Positions 26,229-35,184 of a stretch of 64,000 nucleotides of DNA are shown piece after piece. This DNA is from Thermoanaerobaculia bacterium. Its GTDB lineage: Bacteria; Acidobacteriota; Thermoanaerobaculia; Gp7-AA8. The notes beneath the pieces are model-generated. The model had not been told where the DNA came from, ran no database searches, and saw nothing but the letters and a program-made list of their open reading frames with translations. How positions within the stretch are numbered: the stretch's first letter is position 1; each line of letters starts with the position of its first letter. The translations under genes were made by a program, and so were the position numbers. The stretch is taken from assembly GCA_035482045.1 (NCBI GenBank), contig DATHRD010000063.1:2541-66540 (forward strand), written 5' to 3'.

Positions 26229-26480
26229 GTTCTCCTTCAGGTTTGTTTGAGCGTTGAAATGGGGAACCGGGCGTGGCCCGATTACTTCGAGGAACGCGCG
26301 CGTTCCTGAAACACAATCTTCTTGACTTTACCTGACAGAAGGCGGGCAGCGCCAATTCCCACCACGATCGGGCCGACCATCTCGGCAACGGTCCAGATCT
26401 GCACGCGATAAGTCTACAACTCCTGCCCCCTGCGCGGTTGACGCTGGGTGCAGAGGGTAAGATCCTACTTGATCGCCGTG

Positions 26481-26759
26481 TCTACCTTTGACTGGGATGC
26501 TGACAAAGAACGGAAGAACTTCCGCAAGCACAGGATCACATTTGCCGAGGCGCAGACCGTGTTCGACGATCCCGTTGCGCGCATCGAAGATGACAGCGAT
26601 CACTCAATCGGCGAGCACCGGGAACTGATCATCGGTTATTCTCGTGAAGGGCGATTGCTCGTGGTGAGCTTCGTCCAGCGCGGAGAGATCCTCCGCATCA
26701 TCAATGCCCGCCGGGTCGACGCCCGCGAACGCAAACACCATGAAGAAGAAAACACTTGA
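26481..26759 (+). CDS. brnT: BrnT-family toxin (DUF497 ribonuclease)
   Basis: GTG start giving (M)STFDWDADKERKNFRKHRITFAEAQTVFDDP..., the conserved BrnT N-terminus; 92 aa. Confidence 0.75.
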   Translation, partial: STFDWDADKERKNFRKHRITFAEAQTVFDDPVARIEDDSDHSIGEHRELIIGYSREGRLLVVSFVQRGEILRIINARRVDARERKHHEEENT

Positions 26760-26985
26760 CAACGACGATCTCCGGCCCCATTACGATTTCGACTACACCA
26801 AGATGAAGCCGAACCGTTTTGCGAACGAAAAGAAGGTTTACAAACAGACGTTTATCGTCCTCGATGAAGACGTCTCGAAAGTCTTCCAGTCATCCGAGGA
26901 CGTGAACGTCGTGCTTCGATCAGCGATCCGCGCCATGCGCACCGCGACCCCCAGGCCGCGCGCCCAGAAACGACGCGCCTCCTGA
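26740..26985 (+). CDS. brnA: BrnA-family antitoxin (RHH-like)
   Basis: MKKKTLDNDDLRPHYDFDYTKMKPNRFA...; overlaps the brnT stop by 20 nt; 81 aa. Confidence 0.7.
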   Translation: MKKKTLDNDDLRPHYDFDYTKMKPNRFANEKKVYKQTFIVLDEDVSKVFQSSEDVNVVLRSAIRAMRTATPRPRAQKRRAS

Positions 26986-27051: not shown

Positions 27052-28107
27052 TTACAACTCCAACCTTCCCACCACCGCCTCCCCCGCCCCCTTCGTGCCG
27101 AGGCTGCCGCCGAGGTCGTGGGTGGTCTCGCCGGCCTCGATCGCGGCAACGACAGCGCGCTCGATGATGCCGGCCTCGGCAGGGTGGCCGAGGTATTCGA
27201 GCATCATCGCGGCGGTCAGGATCGCGCCGATGGGGTTCGCCACATCCTTGCCCGCGTACTTCGGCGCGGAGCCGTGGATCGGCTCGAATAGGGAGACTTT
27301 GCCGGGATGGATGTTGCCCGAGGCGGCCATGCCCAGGCCGCCTTGCAGAGCCGCGCCGAGGTCGGTGACGATGTCGCCGAACATGTTGTTCGTCACGATC
27401 ACCTCGAACATCTCCGGCGCGCGCACCATCTGCATCGTCAGAGCGTCGACGAACATGTGGAAGTGCTCGATGCCCGGATACTCCTTCGCCACCTCTTCGA
27501 AAGTCCGCAGCCAGAGGTCGCCGGAAAAGCGCATGACGTTGTTCTTGTCCGACATGCAGACCGACTTGCGGCCGGTCTCCTTCGCGAATTGGAAGGCGTG
27601 GCGGATGATCCGTTCGACTCCCTTGCGCGTGGAGACGTCTTCCTGCACGGCGATCTCGTCGCTCGTCCCTTTCTTGAAGTTGCCCCCCATGCCGACGTAG
27701 GCCCCCTCGGTGTTCTCACGGAAGATGACGAAGTCGACGTCCTGGCGAGTCTTCCCCTTGAGCGGGCAGAGGCGCTCGTCGAGCAGTTTGACCGGGCGAT
27801 AGTTGACGTAGAGATCGAGCTGGAAGCGCATGCCGAGGAGGATGTCGGCGGCATGCTTCATGTCAGGGATGCGCGGATCGCCGAACGCGCCGAGGTAGAC
27901 GGCCGCGTAGTTGTTGCGGATGTCGTCCATCCCACCCGGAGGGATGGAGATGCCGGTGCGGAGGTACTCGTCGGCGTTCCAGCCGAAGTGGACGAGTTCG
28001 AGGCCGAGCTTGCGGGCATCGTTGACGCGGTTCAGGACGCGCAGACCCGCGTCGATGACTTCCGGACCGATCCCGTCGCCGGGGATCACGGCTATTCTCT
28101 TTGGCAT
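27052..28107 (-). CDS. isocitrate/isopropylmalate dehydrogenase family enzyme (tartrate dehydrogenase / 3-isopropylmalate dehydrogenase-like)
   Basis: MPKRIAVIPGDGIGPEV...NLFGDI(V)TD...GSAPKYAGKD(V)ANP; 351 aa. Confidence 0.85.
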   Translation of the reverse strand: MPKRIAVIPGDGIGPEVIDAGLRVLNRVNDARKLGLELVHFGWNADEYLRTGISIPPGGMDDIRNNYAAVYLGAFGDPRIPDMKHAADILLGMRFQLDLYVNYRPVKLLDERLCPLKGKTRQDVDFVIFRENTEGAYVGMGGNFKKGTSDEIAVQEDVSTRKGVERIIRHAFQFAKETGRKSVCMSDKNNVMRFSGDLWLRTFEEVAKEYPGIEHFHMFVDALTMQMVRAPEMFEVIVTNNMFGDIVTDLGAALQGGLGMAASGNIHPGKVSLFEPIHGSAPKYAGKDVANPIGAILTAAMMLEYLGHPAEAGIIERAVVAAIEAGETTHDLGGSLGTKGAGEAVVGRLEL

Positions 28108-28152
28108 GGCGGCGGCGGATTATAGGCGGGGACAGCGCGGGGAGTTGCGACT

Positions 28153-30135
28153 ATGCTTATTCGTATGAAAATCGCCGTCATCGCTGCTGTGCTGACGATT
28201 TGTTCGACCGCCGTCTTCGCCGGCGCCGATCTGAGCCTCGTCGCCTTCAGCTCTCCCCCGACTCTCCTGGCCGGCTCGCTGCTGCCGCTCGGGTTTACCC
28301 TGCACAACGGCGGCGTTGACAACGCGAAGGACGTGGTCGTGACCATCACCGCGACCGGTGGCGTGACGACTCGGTGCGAGAACGGCTGTTCCGTCGGCAC
28401 CGTTCTGGCCGGCACGCAGTCGTACTTCAGTCCGGGAATTGCGTTCAACAACCCGGGCGACGTGACGATCACGGCTACGGTATCGAGCAGCACGCCCGAC
28501 CCTGACCTCAGCAACAACAAAACGTCAGTGATTGTGACGGTGTCACCGGATCCCGACGTTGTCGTGAGCTTCTTCTTCGTGCCCCTGAAAGTGGATCTCG
28601 GACTCCCCTTTTCGCTGGAGATCTACGCGCACGATGAGTCTCTTGTCGTGGCGCACAACGTCGATGTAACCATCGACTTCCGCCCTGACGTGGGCATCAA
28701 GTCGCTGCCAGCAGGTTGCAGTAGTGCCCAGGCCGGGCGCGTCGTCTGCCACGCCGACACCCTGCCGAATAGCGGAGAGGTACTGTCCACATTCACCCTG
28801 ATCGGGCCGCCGGCGTATGGCGACGGAGGGATCACCTTCACCGCCACGGCGACCGAGAGCGAGCAGGACTTCGATCCCAAATCGAACACGGCAACGACCT
28901 TTACCCCGATCGTTCTCCCCCTGGTGGTGACATCAACGGCGAACGATGGCAGCGGCTCGCTGCGACAGGCCATCTTCGACGCCAATGCCGCCGCCACGAG
29001 CGGCCCCATCAGGATCAGTTTCGGCATCGACGAGCCCTCGGCAAACAAGTGGAAGACGATCCACATCACCTCCCCGCTTCCGGCGGTGACGGCATCGAAC
29101 ACTCAGATCGACGGAGCTACGCAGAGCAGTCTCCTCGGAGATACAAACCCCGACGGTCCGGTGATCGAGATCAGCGGCGGCGGGACCGTCGACGGCGATG
29201 GCCTCACCCTCGAAGGATGCGTCGCCGAGGTCGCGAATCTCGCCATCAACGGATTCCAACGCAACGGCGTCTCGGTCTTCGATGCGCACCTTCCCGCGAA
29301 GTGCACGGTGTCCGCGCAGCTTCACAACCTCTTCATCGGCACCGATCCAACCGGCTCCGAAGCGCGGCCGAACGGGCAGCGCGGCATCGGGATATCGAGC
29401 GGAGGAGCATCCATTTTCGACTGCGTCGTCTCTGGCAACGCCAGGAGCGGTGTCTTCGACCTGGCGGGACTGGTGGGGATCTTTGGAAATCGGATCGGCG
29501 TGAAGGCTCACAGCGATGACCCGCTGCCGAATGGTGCCAGCGGTATCTTTATCGGCCCGGGAGGCTACGGCTCTTTCATCGGATCGGACATCATCGCGTC
29601 CACCCGCCCGGGGAACGTGATCGCCTTCAACCGCGAGATGGGAGTTGCCATCGCCGCCGGCGTATTCGACGTCTCGGTCCGCGGCAACAGGATCTGGAAC
29701 AACGGCGGACTCGGAATCGACATTGGCCTCGACGGGCCGACGATGTCGACGATGTCGGATCAAGGCTCACTGATCACCGCACCAACGCTGACGCTCGCGC
29801 ACTACGACCCCGTGTCGAACAAGACGATCGTCGAGGGAGACGCAGTGGCCCATTCCAATGCGGGCGATCCTTTCTTCCCGGTCGACTTCTATGCGAATGA
29901 CGCCGCGGGCCCGTCGGGCTTTGGCGAAGGACAGCGCCCGATCGGCATGACGAAGGACGCCAACTTCACCTCGGCAACGCATTTCCATATCGAGTTTGAC
30001 GGCGATCTGACAGGCCAGTTCATCACGGCCACAGCGACAAATGTGAATTACGAGGGTTTCGCCAAGCCGGAAGGGACCGATCAAGGCTTCCTGACGCAGA
30101 CCTCGGAGTTCAGCCGGGCCATCGAGGTCCGTTAG
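28153..30135 (+). CDS. secreted right-handed beta-helix protein with N-terminal DUF11/CARDB-like domain
   Basis: signal peptide; DLSLVAFSSPPTLLAGS...; VTSTANDGSGSLRQAIFDANAA cap motif; repeated N-x-I-x-GN beta-helix rungs; C-terminal 28 aa shared with the next gene. Confidence 0.65.
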   Translation: MLIRMKIAVIAAVLTICSTAVFAGADLSLVAFSSPPTLLAGSLLPLGFTLHNGGVDNAKDVVVTITATGGVTTRCENGCSVGTVLAGTQSYFSPGIAFNNPGDVTITATVSSSTPDPDLSNNKTSVIVTVSPDPDVVVSFFFVPLKVDLGLPFSLEIYAHDESLVVAHNVDVTIDFRPDVGIKSLPAGCSSAQAGRVVCHADTLPNSGEVLSTFTLIGPPAYGDGGITFTATATESEQDFDPKSNTATTFTPIVLPLVVTSTANDGSGSLRQAIFDANAAATSGPIRISFGIDEPSANKWKTIHITSPLPAVTASNTQIDGATQSSLLGDTNPDGPVIEISGGGTVDGDGLTLEGCVAEVANLAINGFQRNGVSVFDAHLPAKCTVSAQLHNLFIGTDPTGSEARPNGQRGIGISSGGASIFDCVVSGNARSGVFDLAGLVGIFGNRIGVKAHSDDPLPNGASGIFIGPGGYGSFIGSDIIASTRPGNVIAFNREMGVAIAAGVFDVSVRGNRIWNNGGLGIDIGLDGPTMSTMSDQGSLITAPTLTLAHYDPVSNKTIVEGDAVAHSNAGDPFFPVDFYANDAAGPSGFGEGQRPIGMTKDANFTSATHFHIEFDGDLTGQFITATATNVNYEGFAKPEGTDQGFLTQTSEFSRAIEVR

Positions 30136-30248
30136 GCCTCCGTTCGAGAGGCAGGAGAAGGTCAAACGCCGATCACGCGCCCGACGAGCGCACAGCCGTG
30201 GATGATGATTGTCACGTGTGCGGCCGGCGTTCGGCATAGACTTATTTT

Positions 30249-32237
30249 ATGAAGAGCCCACTCGCAGCCGCTCTGCTCGCCCTCCTGGCCATGCCGCTGC
30301 TCGCCGACGCCGATCTGAGCATCACGAACGAATCGACATTGACCGTCGTGCGCGCGGGAGCAAACGCGCCCATCGACTACACGATCCACAATGCAGGACC
30401 GGACACGGCTTCGAAAATACTCATTACGATCACGATGACCGGCGTGACGGAGTCAACCCCATGCACCAGCGGCTGCACGACCGTCTCGGTCCCTATCAGC
30501 AGTGACCTTCCGGCCGGAAAGTCCGTCCGCTACTACTCAACCTTGCCGGCTCCTGCCACTGCCGGTGAGGTCACGTTGACGGTCACGGTCTCCAGTGGCG
30601 TTCCCGATCCGAACCCCGCCGACAACAGCTACACGACAACGTTCACAGTCTCACCCGACCCCGACGTCTTGATCGGTGTCGGCGCGGCGCCGCGGTTGGA
30701 CCTCGGTCTGCCGTTCCGACTGACGATCGGCCTGGGCAATTACGCGCCAATCGATGCTCATGACGTCGACGGAACTGTCGACTTCTCCACCGACGCAAGC
30801 GTCCTGTCCTTGCCAGTGGGATGCACCAATCCGATACCGGGACGCGTCATCTGCCACGTTGACGCGCTGGCAGGGGGAATCGCCGGTGTCCGGACCTTTC
30901 CCGTGACGCTTGTCGCGCCGCCCACGTACGGCTCAGGGTCGATCTCCTTCGCGGCCACCGCTACCGAGCGCGAGCCGGATTTCGATCCTCAGTCAAACGT
31001 AGCGTCCTCGACCTCCCAGCTCTACAACACCTTCTACGTGACATCAACCGCCAACGATGGAACAGGCTCGCTGCGGCAGGCCATCCTCGACGCCAACGCC
31101 GCAACGAGCGGTCCGATTGCGATCGCATTCCGGATCGGAGAGGCCTCGTCGGCGCCGTGGAAAACCATCCGAATCACATCGCCATTGCCGCCGATCGAAG
31201 GCTACGACGTGCGCGTCGACGGCGCTACGCAGAGTGGCTTCTTCGGAGATACAAACCCTGACGGTCCGGAGATCGAGATCACCGGCTCTGGCAGCGTCGA
31301 TGGCGACGGCCTGGAACTGACCAATTGTGAGGGCGAGTTCGCGAATCTCGCCATCAACGGGTTCCGAGGCAACGGCCTCTCCGTCACAGATTCTCACCGT
31401 TCCCCGGACTGCTCGCAGTACTTTCAGAGCACGCTTCACAACCTATTCATCGGCACCGACCCTACTGGCACCGAGGCCCGGCCGAACGGGCAGCGCGGGA
31501 TCGCGGTTTCCGTTGCCGGAGTTGCCATCGTTCATGACTGCGTCCTATCGGGCAACGATCGGAGCGGGATCTTCGACCTGTCGGGAGTCATGACGATCTG
31601 GGGAAACCGCATCGGGGTGAAGGCTCACAGCGATGACCCGCTGCCGAACGGTGCCAGCGGAATCTTTATCGGCCCCGATGGCTACGGATCAGCCATTGGA
31701 GCCGACATCCTCACGCCCACCCGCCCTGGGAACGTCATCGCCTTCAATCGAGAGATGGGGGTAGCCATCGCCTCGGGCGTGAACAGTGTATCCGTCCGCG
31801 GCAACAGGATCTGGAGCAACGGAGGGCTGGGCATCGACATCGGCCTCGATGGGCCCACGCTGTCGACGAAGTCACGGTTTGGCTCCCCGATCGATGTGCC
31901 GACGCTGACTCTCGCACACTACGACCCCGTGTCGGCGAAGACGACCATCGAAGGCGACACGCTGTCGTCACTCACAATCGACCTGTATGCGAGCGACATC
32001 GCGGGCCCCTTTGGGTTTGGCGACGGGCAGCGGCCGATCGCTTCGAAGAGCGCCGACCTCGTTGAAGTTGGCTCGGCGAACCACTTCCGCATCGTAGTGG
32101 ACGGCGACCTGACCGGCCAGTTCATCACGGCGACGGCGACGTTCACGGACTACGAAGGCTTCGCCAAGCCGGAAGGGACCGATCAAGGCTTCCTGACGCA
32201 GACATCGGAGTTCAGCCGGGCCATCGAGGTACGATGA
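30249..32237 (+). CDS. paralog of the preceding secreted beta-helix protein
   Basis: same architecture; VTSTANDGTGSLRQAILDANAA; near-identical central block and C-terminus YEGFAKPEGTDQGFLTQTSEFSRAIEVR. Confidence 0.65.
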   Translation: MKSPLAAALLALLAMPLLADADLSITNESTLTVVRAGANAPIDYTIHNAGPDTASKILITITMTGVTESTPCTSGCTTVSVPISSDLPAGKSVRYYSTLPAPATAGEVTLTVTVSSGVPDPNPADNSYTTTFTVSPDPDVLIGVGAAPRLDLGLPFRLTIGLGNYAPIDAHDVDGTVDFSTDASVLSLPVGCTNPIPGRVICHVDALAGGIAGVRTFPVTLVAPPTYGSGSISFAATATEREPDFDPQSNVASSTSQLYNTFYVTSTANDGTGSLRQAILDANAATSGPIAIAFRIGEASSAPWKTIRITSPLPPIEGYDVRVDGATQSGFFGDTNPDGPEIEITGSGSVDGDGLELTNCEGEFANLAINGFRGNGLSVTDSHRSPDCSQYFQSTLHNLFIGTDPTGTEARPNGQRGIAVSVAGVAIVHDCVLSGNDRSGIFDLSGVMTIWGNRIGVKAHSDDPLPNGASGIFIGPDGYGSAIGADILTPTRPGNVIAFNREMGVAIASGVNSVSVRGNRIWSNGGLGIDIGLDGPTLSTKSRFGSPIDVPTLTLAHYDPVSAKTTIEGDTLSSLTIDLYASDIAGPFGFGDGQRPIASKSADLVEVGSANHFRIVVDGDLTGQFITATATFTDYEGFAKPEGTDQGFLTQTSEFSRAIEVR

Positions 32238-32394
32238 GCCCGCACCACGGGCGGCGACACGCTCGGGGTCAGGGGTTCCCCCGGAACGATGATCCGCGCG
32301 CATACGGGCGCCGCGCCTACGAGCTATGTCACTGCTGCCTCACCGTTATTGGTGGTCCTGGGCACGTGAACGCGAAAAAATGGTGAGTTAACGC

Positions 32395-32705
32395 ACTCGC
32401 GGAGTTCGTGATTAGACTTCGCGAGTCCATGAATTGACTCTGGGAGGCAATTAATTGACTCCGGGAGGCCATGAATTGACTCCGGGAGGCAATTAATTTG
32501 ACTCTGCGAGGCCATGAATTGACTCCGGGAGGCAATTAATTTGACTCTGGGGGGCAATTAATTGACTCCGGGAGGCAATTGATTTGACTCTGGGAGGCCA
32601 TGAATTGACTCGGGAAGGCCATGAATTGACTCTGGGAGGCCATGAATTGACTCCGGGAGGCCATGAATTGACTCCGGGAGGCAATTAATTGACTCCGGGA
32701 GTCCG
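32395..32705. repeat. tandem array of about 14 copies of a 21-22 bp unit (CATGAATTGACTCCGGGAGGC alternating with AATTAATTGACTCCGGGAGGC)
   Basis: direct reading; contiguous units with no spacers. Confidence 0.9.
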
Positions 32706-33069: not shown

Positions 33070-33909
33070 TCAGGTAGGGCTGACCGTGCCCCCGGGAGCG
33101 GCGAGCTCGATGCCAGCATCGACGACGGCCTGCCGCACCCGCGAGTCGCAGAGCGCGGCAGTCTCGGCATCCCACTCGTAACGCCAATGCGGGTAGGCAT
33201 TTACGCGGACACCGGGATGGGTGACCAGCTCCGTCGTCCCGTCGACGTGCGAAAGCAGGTCGACGACTCGGCCGGCGGTCAGGTGGCCCGCCTCCATCAC
33301 GCCGATGGTGTGATCGTTAACGCTGCAATCGTTTGACCGAGCGACCGCGGCCGCGGCGGCCCCGACGCGGTTCAGCGCCGCGATCATCGTCCGCCGAACG
33401 ATCCCACCCCTTCCGCCCCTGTCGTCTACACGGCGCACGTAGCCGATCCCGTATTCGCCCGCCAGCCGGAGGGTGATCGCAAAGACGCGGGGCAGCATGT
33501 GCAAGTGCTGGTGCCCGTTGAGGTGCGTCACCCGGAGGCCGGACGCCAGTACGCGCTCGATCTGTGCGCGCAGCTCGCCTTCGATCGCGGCAGAGTCCTT
33601 TCGCCCGAGGAGGAAGCCGAGGTACGACTTCGGAAAGCGCATGCCGGTCAGCGAGCGCTCCTCGACGAGCGCCAGATGGACGCCCACCGCGAGCGAGGGC
33701 ACGTCGCGCAGCCGTGCCACGGCGTCGTCGAATGCCACACCATTGGCGACGACGCTGCACGCGGTCACGATCCCGTCGCGATGTGCGCGGATGGCCCCCT
33801 CGGTCATCCCGCGATGGAGGCCGGCGTCATCCGCGGTGACGATGAGCCGCCTTGTTGTAACGCCGGCCGCTCTCGCGTCACTACCCGGCAAAGGAGGAAT
33901 TCTCATGCG
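33070..33909 (-). CDS. YdjC/ChbG (HpnK-like) carbohydrate deacetylase family protein
   Basis: LIVTADDAGL...NGHQHLHMLP...; start codon uncertain (several in-frame Met). Confidence 0.65.
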   Translation of the reverse strand, partial: RMRIPPLPGSDARAAGVTTRRLIVTADDAGLHRGMTEGAIRAHRDGIVTACSVVANGVAFDDAVARLRDVPSLAVGVHLALVEERSLTGMRFPKSYLGFLLGRKDSAAIEGELRAQIERVLASGLRVTHLNGHQHLHMLPRVFAITLRLAGEYGIGYVRRVDDRGGRGGIVRRTMIAALNRVGAAAAAVARSNDCSVNDHTIGVMEAGHLTAGRVVDLLSHVDGTTELVTHPGVRVNAYPHWRYEWDAETAALCDSRVRQAVVDAGIELAAPGGTVSPT

Positions 33910-34378
33910 ACTGCGCATCCTAACCATTCTCGTCGTTCTCACCGCCGCCGTAGCGGCCAACGCCCAGGTTCAACAGGTCCGGCAGTACGCCGCGAAGTTC
34001 GTCTGCGGCAAAGCCCCCAACGACACGCTCAACGTGGCGCCAGGGTCTTACTTCACGACCATCAACGTCCACAACCCCGCCCTCGTGGCCGCCGTCGAAT
34101 TCCGGAAGAAGTTCGCGCTGGCCGAGATGGGCGAAAAGCCAGGGAAGATCTCGCAGTGGTTCCCCACCGCCCTGAAGGCCGACGAGGCGATGCAGATCGA
34201 TTGCCGGAACATCTACGCGCACCTCGGCATCGCACCAGGCACGTTCATCGACGGGTTCGCCGTCATCGAGCTCTCACCGAGGCAGGAGCTCGACGTCGTC
34301 GGCGTCTACACCGCGGCCGGGAGCACGGGCGTGTCGACGATGCACATGGAGCGCGTGGCAGGCAGGCTCACGCAGTAG
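33906..34378 (+). CDS. small secreted hypothetical protein
   Basis: AAAGGAGG RBS then MRLRILTILVVLTAAVAANAQ signal peptide; 157 aa. Confidence 0.6.
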
Positions 34379-34386
34379 CCGCGCGG

Positions 34387-35184
34387 CTAGGTTTCCACGG
34401 GATGGTGGTCGCCGGCAAGGACGCCGCCGGCCGCCTCCCGCTTCTCGCGCACGACACGCTGCACTTCCTCGTGGGAAACGCGCTCGCGCAACTCCGGATA
34501 GAGCTTCACGAGCTCGACAAAGATCTTGAGGATCACGCGGGGAGACGACAGGTGCGACCGGCCGCGGATTCGCGGGAAATAGTCGAGGCCGATCTGCTGG
34601 ATCGTAAAGCCGCGGTTCTTCGCCTTCACCACCAGTTCCGCGTCGATCAGCGAGCCCTCGGACTTCAATTCGACTGCCTCCAGCACTTCGCGCTTCAGCA
34701 GCTTGAACGAGAAGTTGATGTCGCGGTGTGGCCAGCCGAAAAGTACGCCGATCAGACCGTTGTACAGATACGAGTAGAGCGTCCGCCTCAGCCCTTCGAG
34801 CGTTCTGTCGAGACGGTATCCGGCGATCAGGTCGGCGCCCGTCACTTCCATGGCCCGCATGGCCCGGCCGAGGGCGTCGGGATCGAAGGGAAGGTCGGCG
34901 TCCATGTAGAGAACGAGATCCTTCGTGGCAGCGGCGAAACCGGTCTTGAGCGAGCCGCCCAGCTTGCGGTTCCGCTCGTGGCGGATCATGCGGATGCGCG
35001 GGTTCTCGGCGGCGCGGCAGGCCACGAGAAACGGCGACTGATCGGTGGAAGCGTCGTCGACGATGATGATCTCGTAGTCGTCAGCGTACTTTGTGCAGGC
35101 CTCCACCGCCGCGTTGATCGCGTGTTCGATGTTCAACTCTTCGTTGAACATCGGGATGACGAGCGAGACGGACCGGTTACGCAT
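34387..35184 (-). CDS. polyprenyl-phosphate glycosyltransferase (GT2; DPM1/ArnC-like)
   Basis: SLVIPMFNEELNIEH...YEIIIVDDASTDQS...; 265 aa. Confidence 0.85.
   Translation of the reverse strand: MRNRSVSLVIPMFNEELNIEHAINAAVEACTKYADDYEIIIVDDASTDQSPFLVACRAAENPRIRMIRHERNRKLGGSLKTGFAAATKDLVLYMDADLPFDPDALGRAMRAMEVTGADLIAGYRLDRTLEGLRRTLYSYLYNGLIGVLFGWPHRDINFSFKLLKREVLEAVELKSEGSLIDAELVVKAKNRGFTIQQIGLDYFPRIRGRSHLSSPRVILKIFVELVKLYPELRERVSHEEVQRVVREKREAAGGVLAGDHHPVET

Follow-up and report, generated by a model that had tools for sequence, protein, structure and literature searches.

Multi-unit surface proteins of the CSLREA type, also annotated as "right-handed parallel beta-helix repeat-containing" proteins (TIGR04214, PF13229), are exemplified by the 4,168-aa MCB9450499.1 of an Anaerolineaceae member. 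The unit opens with ..TV.TT.D.G.GSLR.A, runs through PbH1-type rungs (N.IGTD.TG....N...GI) and LGID.G.DG.T, and is followed by a sandwich with ..G.GEGQ..LG.., ..[FW]ITATAT...TSEFS, and a final strand. T9SS C-terminal domains (TIGR04183/PF18962) are small beta-sandwiches at the extreme C terminus of Sec-exported proteins, and PEP-CTERM/exosortase and LPXTG/sortase signals are short conserved motifs near the C terminus of secreted proteins, often in multicopy families. CLIPPER (DUF11, PF01345) domains form the stalks of fibrillar adhesins, and just some members contain an intramolecular Lys-Asn isopeptide triad (Protein Sci 2025, PMC12617251).

Gene pair and domain architecture

In the window, a 64,000-nucleotide stretch from a Thermoanaerobaculia bacterium, two tandem plus-strand ORFs of 660 and 662 aa (paralogs A and B) were found where a sequence-only reading had placed two genes of about 660 aa. 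They are separated by a 113-nt spacer, and B is the last gene of the array. A is identical to database protein P0009 and B to P0001, which bears the NCBI name [quoted passage not shown] Alignment to the family profile spans the whole of both ORFs (E about 1e-296 to 1e-300; full-length match of A, E = 7e-296), which are collinear with the family and share its signal peptide, ADL start, and C-terminal signature ...GDLTGQFITAT.T...GFAKPEG..QGFLTQTSEFS..[IV]EVR. Their features are as follows.

28153..30135, plus strand: paralog A, 660 aa; a signal peptide precedes two DUF11/CLIPPER-type Ig-like domains, a right-handed beta-helix, and, at the C terminus, an Fn3-like sandwich (ORF, Pfam, family profile)
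28153..28224, plus strand: predicted Sec signal peptide of A, aa 1-24, followed by the near-invariant ADL (sequence reading, putative cleavage site)
29491..29742, plus strand: central conserved block of A, aa 447-530, RIGVKAHSDDPLPNGASGIFIGP...GLGIDIGLDGPT (A-B alignment; among the best-conserved windows family-wide)
29770..30132, plus strand: C-terminal Fn3/Ig-like sandwich of A, aa about 540-660 (aligned to B547-662; C-terminal-module profile, E = 5e-66)
30049..30135, plus strand: tail of A, aa 633-660 plus stop; runs from the second half of the last hairpin through TSEFS to the final strand
30249..32237, plus strand: paralog B, 662 aa; architecture as in A (ORF, Pfam, AlphaFold model)
30249..30308, plus strand: predicted Sec signal peptide of B, aa 1-20 (as for A, putative cleavage site)
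30309..31022, plus strand: two Ig-like (DUF11/CLIPPER/CARDB-type) domains of B, aa 21-135 and 140-258 (Pfam DUF11 at 22-131; model strands 23-135 and 140-258)
31023..31886, plus strand: right-handed beta-helix unit of B, aa 259-546, with FYVTSTANDGTGSLRQAILDANA as a Cys-less CSLREA unit start (Pfam Beta_helix 354-532, model, BLASTP)
31608..31859, plus strand: central conserved block of B, aa 454-537 (windows 454-481, score 0.87, rank 1, and 510-537, score 0.81, rank 4, across 111 sequences)
31887..32234, plus strand: C-terminal Fn3/Ig-like sandwich of B, aa 547-662
32151..32237, plus strand: tail of B, aa 635-662 plus stop (third most conserved 28-aa family window, score 0.81)

The predicted signal peptides have a basic N terminus, a hydrophobic core, and small residues ahead of ADL, whose conservation across the family is at least 90%; a low-pLDDT helix spans residues 4 to 13 of the B model. 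Pfam agreed with the earlier description of a DUF11/CARDB-like N terminus followed by a beta-helix. Both proteins pass the DUF11 gathering threshold of 24.6 bits (A, 42.7; B, 46.7), and CARDB scores 26.7 bits in B. Beta_helix (PF13229), at about residues 354 to 530, passes its gathering score of 25.9 bits in B (29.6) and falls slightly below it in A (24.0); A-B identity in this region is 62 to 82%, and the helix is evident in the B model. The N-terminal Ig-like domains are the most variable part of the family, with a column conservation of 0.36 to 0.66 and an A-B identity of 34 to 46%. A and B resemble CLIPPER proteins in having N-terminal DUF11/CLIPPER-type Ig domains over the Pfam threshold, a signal peptide, and a surface-protein-like layout, but they have two such domains, both N-terminal, no long stalk, and no recognized anchoring domain. 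At the position after ADLS.T, which we take to be that of the isopeptide lysine in typical DUF11 domains, B appears by eye to have an asparagine and A appears to lack a lysine.

Homology of the A/B unit to that of the CSLREA proteins is shown by profile matches, the motif layout, and BLASTP, which aligned the beta-helix unit of B from its start with an internal unit of the 6,809-aa P0133 (E = 7e-20). In contrast to the multi-unit proteins, A and B consist of a single unit behind two DUF11/CLIPPER domains, and their GSLRQA lacks the Cys. TIGR04214, a 27-residue N-terminal model with a cut-off of 25 bits, gave no match to A or B at E ≤ 1 in NCBIfam, a search that returned nothing meaningful for either protein; a typical unit of P0122 matches it with 37.1 bits (2e-9).

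The two proteins are 59% identical over 651 aligned residues. The earlier statement that they have diverged over most of their length held for the N-terminal domains, at about 35% identity, but identity climbs smoothly from there to about 85% in the beta-helix, drops to 50 to 60% at about positions 558 to 600, and increases again in the tail; the conserved blocks are not islands inside otherwise diverged genes. The central block itself is real, with about 80 to 87% amino acid identity between A447-530 and B454-537, although its GVKAHSDD had been mistranscribed as GIKAHSDD.

Family-wide conservation of the tail

The 28-aa tails of A and B (YEGFAKPEGTDQGFLTQTSEFSRAIEVR) are identical at 28/28 residues and at 79/84 nucleotides (94%, roughly the 95% reported earlier), or 80/87 (92%) with the stop codons, and a 71-nt core holds one mismatch. 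Direct reading revealed neither a hydrophobic segment nor a basic cluster, and no sorting-signal model in Pfam or NCBIfam matched at E ≤ 1, consistent with the earlier remark that it is not PEP-CTERM-like. The suggestion that it might mark a family was borne out by the homolog search: all 120 homologs among the matches listed (47 to 100% identity) have the tail at the extreme C terminus, and it is thus not confined to these two genes. The ending ...GDLTGQFITAT.T..Y.GFAKPEGIDQGFLTQTSEFSRAIEVR is shared by more than 100 full-length relatives (Thermoanaerobaculia/Acidobacteriota, identity as low as 47%), and farther Thermoanaerobaculia relatives (30 to 40%) keep DLRG.[FWY]I[ST]AT.T...TSEFS.A..V. 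The four most conserved 28-aa windows over 111 sequences were B454-481, 328-355, the tail (635-662), and 510-537, which include all of the blocks that had been flagged in the pair. In between-genome pairs, synonymous identity in the tail equals the codon-bias expectation (observed/expected, 1.00), and the constraint therefore acts on the protein, not on the DNA.

The tail as the end of a sandwich domain

In the AlphaFold model of B (pLDDT 89.5), the tail is placed as strands 625-636, 647-652, and 657-660 of an all-beta domain (547-662), which, modeled separately, is an Fn3/Ig-like sandwich. The loop at residues 637 to 646 was modeled with moderate confidence (pLDDT about 65 to 75), and its GFAKPEG is at least 90% conserved. 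The last-hairpin loop, Y.GFAKPEG[IT][DE]QGFL, has a median length of 20 residues in the A/B family versus 5 in the generic unit and is at least 90% conserved at G, A, K, and G. A loop this conserved, yet of moderate pLDDT, fits a functional surface site better than a core strand, a point against a structural reading of this segment.

Whole-model Foldseek against PDB returned generic tandem Ig-like proteins (integrin legs, transglutaminases) and the beta-helix entry 8wm1, on which a literature search found no paper, and was not informative. Profile searches of PDB sequences with the full-length and C-terminal profiles gave nothing significant (best, engineered OspA at E = 0.01), with no single stretch over the threshold. 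Fn3-like modules of carbohydrate-active enzymes and biofilm surface proteins (5g56, 3mpc, 7c7u) are just 13 to 20% identical to the A/B sandwich, which has no sequence-detectable relation to any solved structure. Literature searches on TSEFS/NTSEFS, CSLREA, and choice-of-anchor Q yielded nothing relevant.

A profile of B524-662 matched 5,364 protein clusters (50% identity) from several phyla at E ≤ 1e-3, many of them proteins of 2 to 7 kaa with three to eight copies of the sandwich. TSE[FL]S is present in 83 of the 89 large matches, on average 2.8 times, and each occurrence is followed within about 10 to 15 residues by the ..TV.TT.D.G.GSLRQA start of the next unit, so that TSEFS and one strand close each internal repeat unit of these giant relatives. 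Among small motif-bearing matches, the motif lies at most 15 residues from the end in 30/32. Six natural double-length fusions (P0136, P0146, P0159, P0161, P0169, and P0177) each contain two complete family architectures, and P0146 was found in four samples. The first tail motif is TSEF[SG]..[FVY][RQ]V in most fusions and TTELG in P0177, with none listed for P0136; in the 5/5 fusions with a listed motif, the linker leads into the ADL of the second copy, and the motif is thus internal, as a recognizable variant, in 5/6.

Explanations for the conserved tail

The pattern is most probably one of ordinary structural constraint, in which the tail is the end of the unit's sandwich under purifying selection and A and B are old tandem duplicates within a single-unit surface family. 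The duplication is old, since an A-type and B-type pair shares the locus in another genome. The family would comprise Sec-exported, probably cell-surface proteins of Thermoanaerobaculia, perhaps adhesin-like, in which the signal peptide is followed by two DUF11/CLIPPER-type Ig domains of variable sequence and then by a single unit, a CSLREA-type right-handed beta-helix joined to an Fn3-like sandwich. The tail supplies the second half of the last hairpin (Y.GFAKPEG.DQGFL), TSEFS, and the final short strand (.A[IV]EV), and it may be needed to complete and stabilize the sandwich after the helix. Strong family-wide purifying selection on the protein, acting on both the tail and the beta-helix rungs of the central block, would leave the tail near-identical in A and B, and it would be C-terminal there because the proteins have a single unit; multi-unit relatives end every internal unit with the TSEFS motif. 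Because such selection explains the pattern, neither conversion nor a sorting signal is needed. We regard it as unlikely, yet worth naming, that the lengthened last hairpin is a lineage-specific functional surface, such as a docking or oligomerization arm or a site for holding or handing over the protein to a Thermoanaerobaculia envelope component.

Gene conversion, proposed earlier for the tail, is improbable as an explanation in which DNA exchange between the tandem copies, not selection, would lately have homogenized the tail and perhaps the central block, although several observations in the pair point toward it. At identical residues, 23/28 tail codons are identical (0.82) versus 0.68 over the 372 codons before the tail and a codon-bias expectation of 0.48, and the longest run with at most one synonymous difference (23 codons) falls in the tail (permutation P = 0.025 versus the whole gene); against the local background, however, the excess was not significant, with P = 0.13 (permutation, C-terminal two-thirds) and P = 0.074 (binomial). 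Over the last 42 residues, B is closest to A (0.93), and P0002, its nearest relative in all other regions, is outside the best six (all at least 0.86). With B2, the B ortholog in another genome, nucleotide identity in columns 600 to 640 is 0.75 to 0.79 for A versus 0.65 to 0.68 for B, a hint of mosaicism, but in the tail A-B2 (0.92) and B-B2 (0.93) are near A-B (0.94), and the similarity is not peculiar to the coresident pair. Synonymous identity is higher in the tail than elsewhere in both the window pair (0.82 versus 0.68) and its syntenic counterpart (0.78 versus 0.63), whereas 16 tandem pairs from other genomes, when pooled, show no tail excess (observed/expected, 1.26 versus 1.21 in the remaining gene). 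Moreover, the tail residues are conserved in hundreds of proteins of other genomes, where exchange with A or B is impossible. Since the whole gene also exceeds expectation (0.68), the synonymous excess of the tail mostly reflects unsaturated dS, not a tract; conversion may have made a small contribution to the identity. Codon bias as the sole cause of the tail DNA identity was rejected (expected, 0.48; observed, 0.82).

A role as a secretion or sorting signal, also proposed earlier for the tail, appears quite improbable, whether for the tail or for the whole C-terminal sandwich, and whether as a T9SS-like domain or as a new lineage-specific tag read by export or anchoring machinery after Sec export. 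It would fit the invariably C-terminal tail of the ~660-aa family, the terminal position of the motif in small matches, the likeness to the T9SS beta-sandwiches, and the strongly conserved family-specific loop, which is modeled as a lower-confidence, probably exposed hairpin. An obligate C-terminal signal requires a free C terminus, however, and thousands of proteins have the sandwich in internal, repeated copies; the internal position of the motif in the giant relatives and in double-length fusions makes such a signal unlikely. The T9SS models TIGR04183/TIGR04131 and PF18962, and the PEP-CTERM and other sorting-signal models in Pfam and NCBIfam, did not match A or B at E ≤ 1. The host belongs to the Acidobacteriota, in which T9SS is not known to be established. 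In contrast to PEP-CTERM or sortase-type tripartite signals, the motif is not followed by a transmembrane helix or basic tail, and the conserved neighborhood contains no sortase, exosortase, or secretion-type gene.

Conservation at the nucleotide level, with the 3' end of each gene holding a ribosome-binding site or RNA structure for the next paralog, is very improbable. In many arrays the ATG of the next paralog lies +0 to +22 nt past the stop codon or overlaps it (CGATGATGA), and the conserved ...ATC GAG GTN CGN codons put GAGGT 5 to 7 nt upstream. Yet this would cover the last three to four codons at most, not 28; the A-B spacer is 113 nt, and B retains the identical end as the last gene; subfamilies ending in GVPVQ or GIPVQ lack GAGGT; and between-genome synonymous identity is exactly that expected from codon bias.

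Genomic context and significance

With the candidate sorting signal and conversion hotspot struck off, the tail has little import for biology at large. For domain curators, the TSEFS sandwich that closes every CSLREA-type beta-helix unit, in more than 5,000 clusters, is without a Pfam-A or NCBIfam model.

Tandem arrays occupy the Iso_dh/YdjC locus in the window and at loci L001, L058, L059, and L060, the last three with 2 to 5+1 copies. Conserved neighbors are Iso_dh, an S46 peptidase, YdjC, GT2, and PMT_2, in divergent or convergent transcription. A functional link to the downstream YdjC-GT2-PMT_2 genes was considered but not adopted, as the array faces these genes convergently and diverges from Iso_dh, which leaves synteny as the sole evidence. 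Scans of 27900 to 32600 found no sigma-70-like promoter and three terminator-like sites, all on the minus strand within gene A and at a chance-level count. For the Acidobacteriota envelope field, the locus offers a copy-number-variable array (two to six copies) of single-unit versions at one conserved Thermoanaerobaculia chromosomal site, and its copies, which vary in their N-terminal Ig domains and are conserved in their C-terminal part, have the layout expected for a diversifying surface-protein family.

The tandem paralogs A and B

Paralogs A and B lie on the same strand with a spacer of 113 nt and share 59% amino acid identity over 651 residues.

28153-30135, +, paralog A, ORF of 660 aa
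30249-32237, +, paralog B, ORF of 662 aa
29767-30237, -, long ORF of 156 aa, antisense across the tail of A
31968-32303, -, long ORF of 111 aa, antisense across the tail of B
31095-31130, stretch of B (aa 283-294, with the matching part of A) lacking the cysteine pair of the family consensus

The shared C-terminal tail and near-identical central block recorded in the sequence-only reading were both recovered: the last 28 residues are identical, with 79/84 identical nucleotides (80/87 with the stop codons), and the central block (A447-530/B454-537) is ~80 to 87% identical. Pfam likewise supported the proposed architecture, with DUF11/CARDB at the N terminus and Beta_helix at ~354-530. The conserved blocks do not stand out as isolated patches; identity varies along the whole gene, from ~35% in the N-terminal domains to ~85% in the helix, with a dip at 558-600 and a rise at the end. 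After the unit start, the family consensus carries a cysteine pair (NA.C....PC.IAF), and neither cysteine is present in A and B (DANAATSGPIAIAF and DANAAATSGPIRISF). The antisense ORFs are probably artefactual, a product of the G+C content of 63%, and are unlikely to be coding, because the tail shows no extra synonymous constraint between genomes.

Conservation and structure of the tail

With B as the query, at least 371 relatives were found. The best 120 of these, down to 47% identity, are almost all of ~650 to 680 aa and from Thermoanaerobaculia/Acidobacteriota metagenome genomes, and all end at the extreme C terminus in a variant of GDLTGQFITAT.T..Y.GFAKPEGIDQGFLTQTSEFSRAIEVR; the tail thus marks a family, a point that the earlier reading had left to be checked. 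The best-conserved 28-residue windows in an alignment of 111 sequences were B454-481 (0.87), 328-355 (0.83), the tail at 635-662 (0.81), and 510-537 (0.81). Since the same windows rank at the top, the pattern first noticed between A and B mirrors a family-wide constraint. Relatives at 30 to 40% identity end in DLRG.[FWY]I[ST]AT.T, a variable loop, and TSEFS.A..V. Among species-representative genomes, the full architecture was found only in Thermoanaerobaculia/Acidobacteriota, and other phyla matched the helix core only, except for a KSB1 locus (L046) with a match to residue 657.

The AlphaFold model of B (pLDDT, 89.5) consists of the following elements.

signal-peptide helix
aa 23-135 and 140-258, two Ig-like domains
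right-handed beta-helix
aa 547-662, separate all-beta domain, ending in the tail: strand (625-636), loop of lower confidence (637-646), strand (647-652), and short final strand

The likely explanation for the conservation of the tail is an ordinary one: purifying selection has kept the closing hairpin and strand of a capping sandwich domain. The one detail that stands apart is the lengthened last hairpin (median of 20 residues in the family versus 5 in the generic unit, where the turn is D..GN), which is family specific and strongly conserved.

The sandwich domain as a repeated module

A profile of B524-662 compared with 1.84 billion representative proteins matched 5,364 clusters at an E value of ≤1e-3 and 797 at ≤1e-10, many of them proteins of 2,000 to 7,400 aa with 3 to 8 copies. 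TSE[FL]S occurs in 83 of 89 large proteins (mean, 2.8 occurrences), preceded by ..[FW]ITATATD..N and followed by a short strand, a linker, and the ..TV.TT.D.G.GSLRQA of the next unit. The unit of B, which begins with FYVTSTANDGTGSLRQAILDANA, aligns with an internal unit of a multi-unit relative (E value, 7e-20). This layout and alignment identify TSEFS and the final strand as the element that closes each unit of a widespread module made of helix and sandwich, and the tail is terminal in A and B because each holds only one unit. The multi-unit relatives, from Anaerolineaceae, Verrucomicrobiota, Rhodothermia, and Pseudorhodoferax, are publicly named "CSLREA domain-containing" or "right-handed parallel beta-helix repeat-containing" protein. 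Their typical unit is matched by TIGR04214, whereas A and B, both of which lack the Cys of CSLREA, are not.

The Fn3-like TSEFS sandwich (29770-30132 and 31887-32234) ends each CSLREA-type beta-helix unit in several phyla. Pfam-A and NCBIfam have no model for it, profile searches found no solved structure related by sequence to B or its sandwich, and we found no literature on it.

Sorting signal or gene conversion

The tail had also been read as a possible secretion or sorting signal, or as a site of gene conversion. It is indeed nonhydrophobic, and it has no basic segment either. A role as a C-terminal sorting signal is unlikely, as the same element is internal in the giant multi-unit proteins; moreover, Pfam and NCBIfam gave no T9SS, PEP-CTERM, or other sorting match in A or B, and the conserved neighbors of the array, which are housekeeping or glycosylation-type genes, include no sortase-like gene. 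The first tail is also internal in double-length proteins of ~1,220 to 1,300 aa, each with two complete family architectures, which form six clusters (P0136, P0146 plus P0272-P0274, P0159, P0161, P0169, and P0177), one of them found in four samples. It is kept as TSEF[SG] in five of the six (TTELG in P0177), where a short linker and then ADL, the normal start of the mature protein, follow. The second copy has no signal peptide and, among the five with a listed junction, starts at ADL. The layout of these proteins suggests that neighboring array members have fused.

Gene conversion is unlikely to be the cause of the tail identity. Synonymous identity was measured as the share of matching codons among positions where both sequences have the same residue. 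In the final 400 codons of A and B, it is 23/28 (0.82) in the tail versus 0.68 in the preceding 372 codons, and codon bias alone predicts 0.48; the higher value in the tail falls short of significance (binomial P = 0.074). A run test gave a P value of 0.025 against the whole gene and 0.13 against the C-terminal two-thirds. Tail nucleotide identity is nearly equal for A-B (0.94), B-B2 (0.93), and A-B2 (0.92), where B2 is the B ortholog in the related locus L001, so the similarity extends beyond co-resident copies; the presence of an A-type and B-type pair at the same site in a related genome places the duplication before that split. When 16 tandem pairs from other genomes are combined, the tail has an observed/expected ratio of 1.26, on a par with the remainder of the gene (1.21). 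In comparisons between genomes, the tail ratio is 1.00, which excludes a nucleotide-level function as well. Hints of mosaicism appear near columns 600 to 640 and in nearest-neighbor ranks, and gene conversion may have contributed a minor share of the tail identity.

Upstream of the tail, at 32040-32150 (B aa ~598-634; L001 11790-11900), nucleotide identity is 0.65 to 0.68 for B-B2 and 0.75 to 0.79 for A-B2. THFHIEFDGD is common to A, B2, and several family members, and B has NHFRIVVDGD. Either a local replacement took place in this stretch or B has diverged fast here.

Array and genomic context

The chromosomal site of the array is conserved, in the order S46 peptidase, Iso_dh, array, YdjC, GT2, and PMT_2-like gene, and the copy number varies. 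The window and related loci carry the following arrays.

window 28153-32237, 2 copies
L001 7615-11998, 2 copies
L058 9001-13044, 2 copies
L060 9001-13004, 2 copies
L059 3691-17062, 5 copies in a row and 1 beyond Iso_dh

The N-terminal DUF11 domains, the most variable part of the family, are now named CLIPPER and are typical of adhesin stalks (PMC12617251). This variability fits a diversifying family of secreted or surface proteins.

In many related arrays, the ATG of the next paralog lies +0 to +22 nt past the previous stop codon or overlaps it (CGATGATGA), as at L004 5990-6010, L005, L006, L007 6000 and 8010, L008 8007, L010 1562, L025 5967 and 7953, L028 925, and the L031 and L034 junctions. 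The tail end ...ATC GAG GTN CGN there puts a Shine-Dalgarno-like GAGGT 5 to 7 nt before the next ATG, which suggests possible translational coupling along the close-junction arrays; the 113-nt spacer makes this inapplicable to A and B.

Genes flanking the array include the following.

26448-26759, +, BrnT-family toxin (PF04365; E value, 2e-23), between S46 peptidase and Iso_dh
26704-26985, +, small ORF overlapping the toxin gene
33070-33960, -, YdjC-like deacetylase
34387-35184, -, GT2

A PMT_2/ArnT-like gene lies downstream of the last two in L001, L058, and L060. The conserved cluster of YdjC-like deacetylase, GT2, PMT_2/ArnT-like gene, and methyltransferase is convergent with the array and resembles those of lipid A sugar modification of the ArnC/ArnT type or the Bordetella Lgm type. 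The small ORF, without a Pfam match, is presumably the BrnA antitoxin. The BrnT pair is absent at this position in L001, L058, and L060, and a DarT/NADAR pair lies nearby in L059; toxin-antitoxin modules are apparently gained and lost at the array locus.
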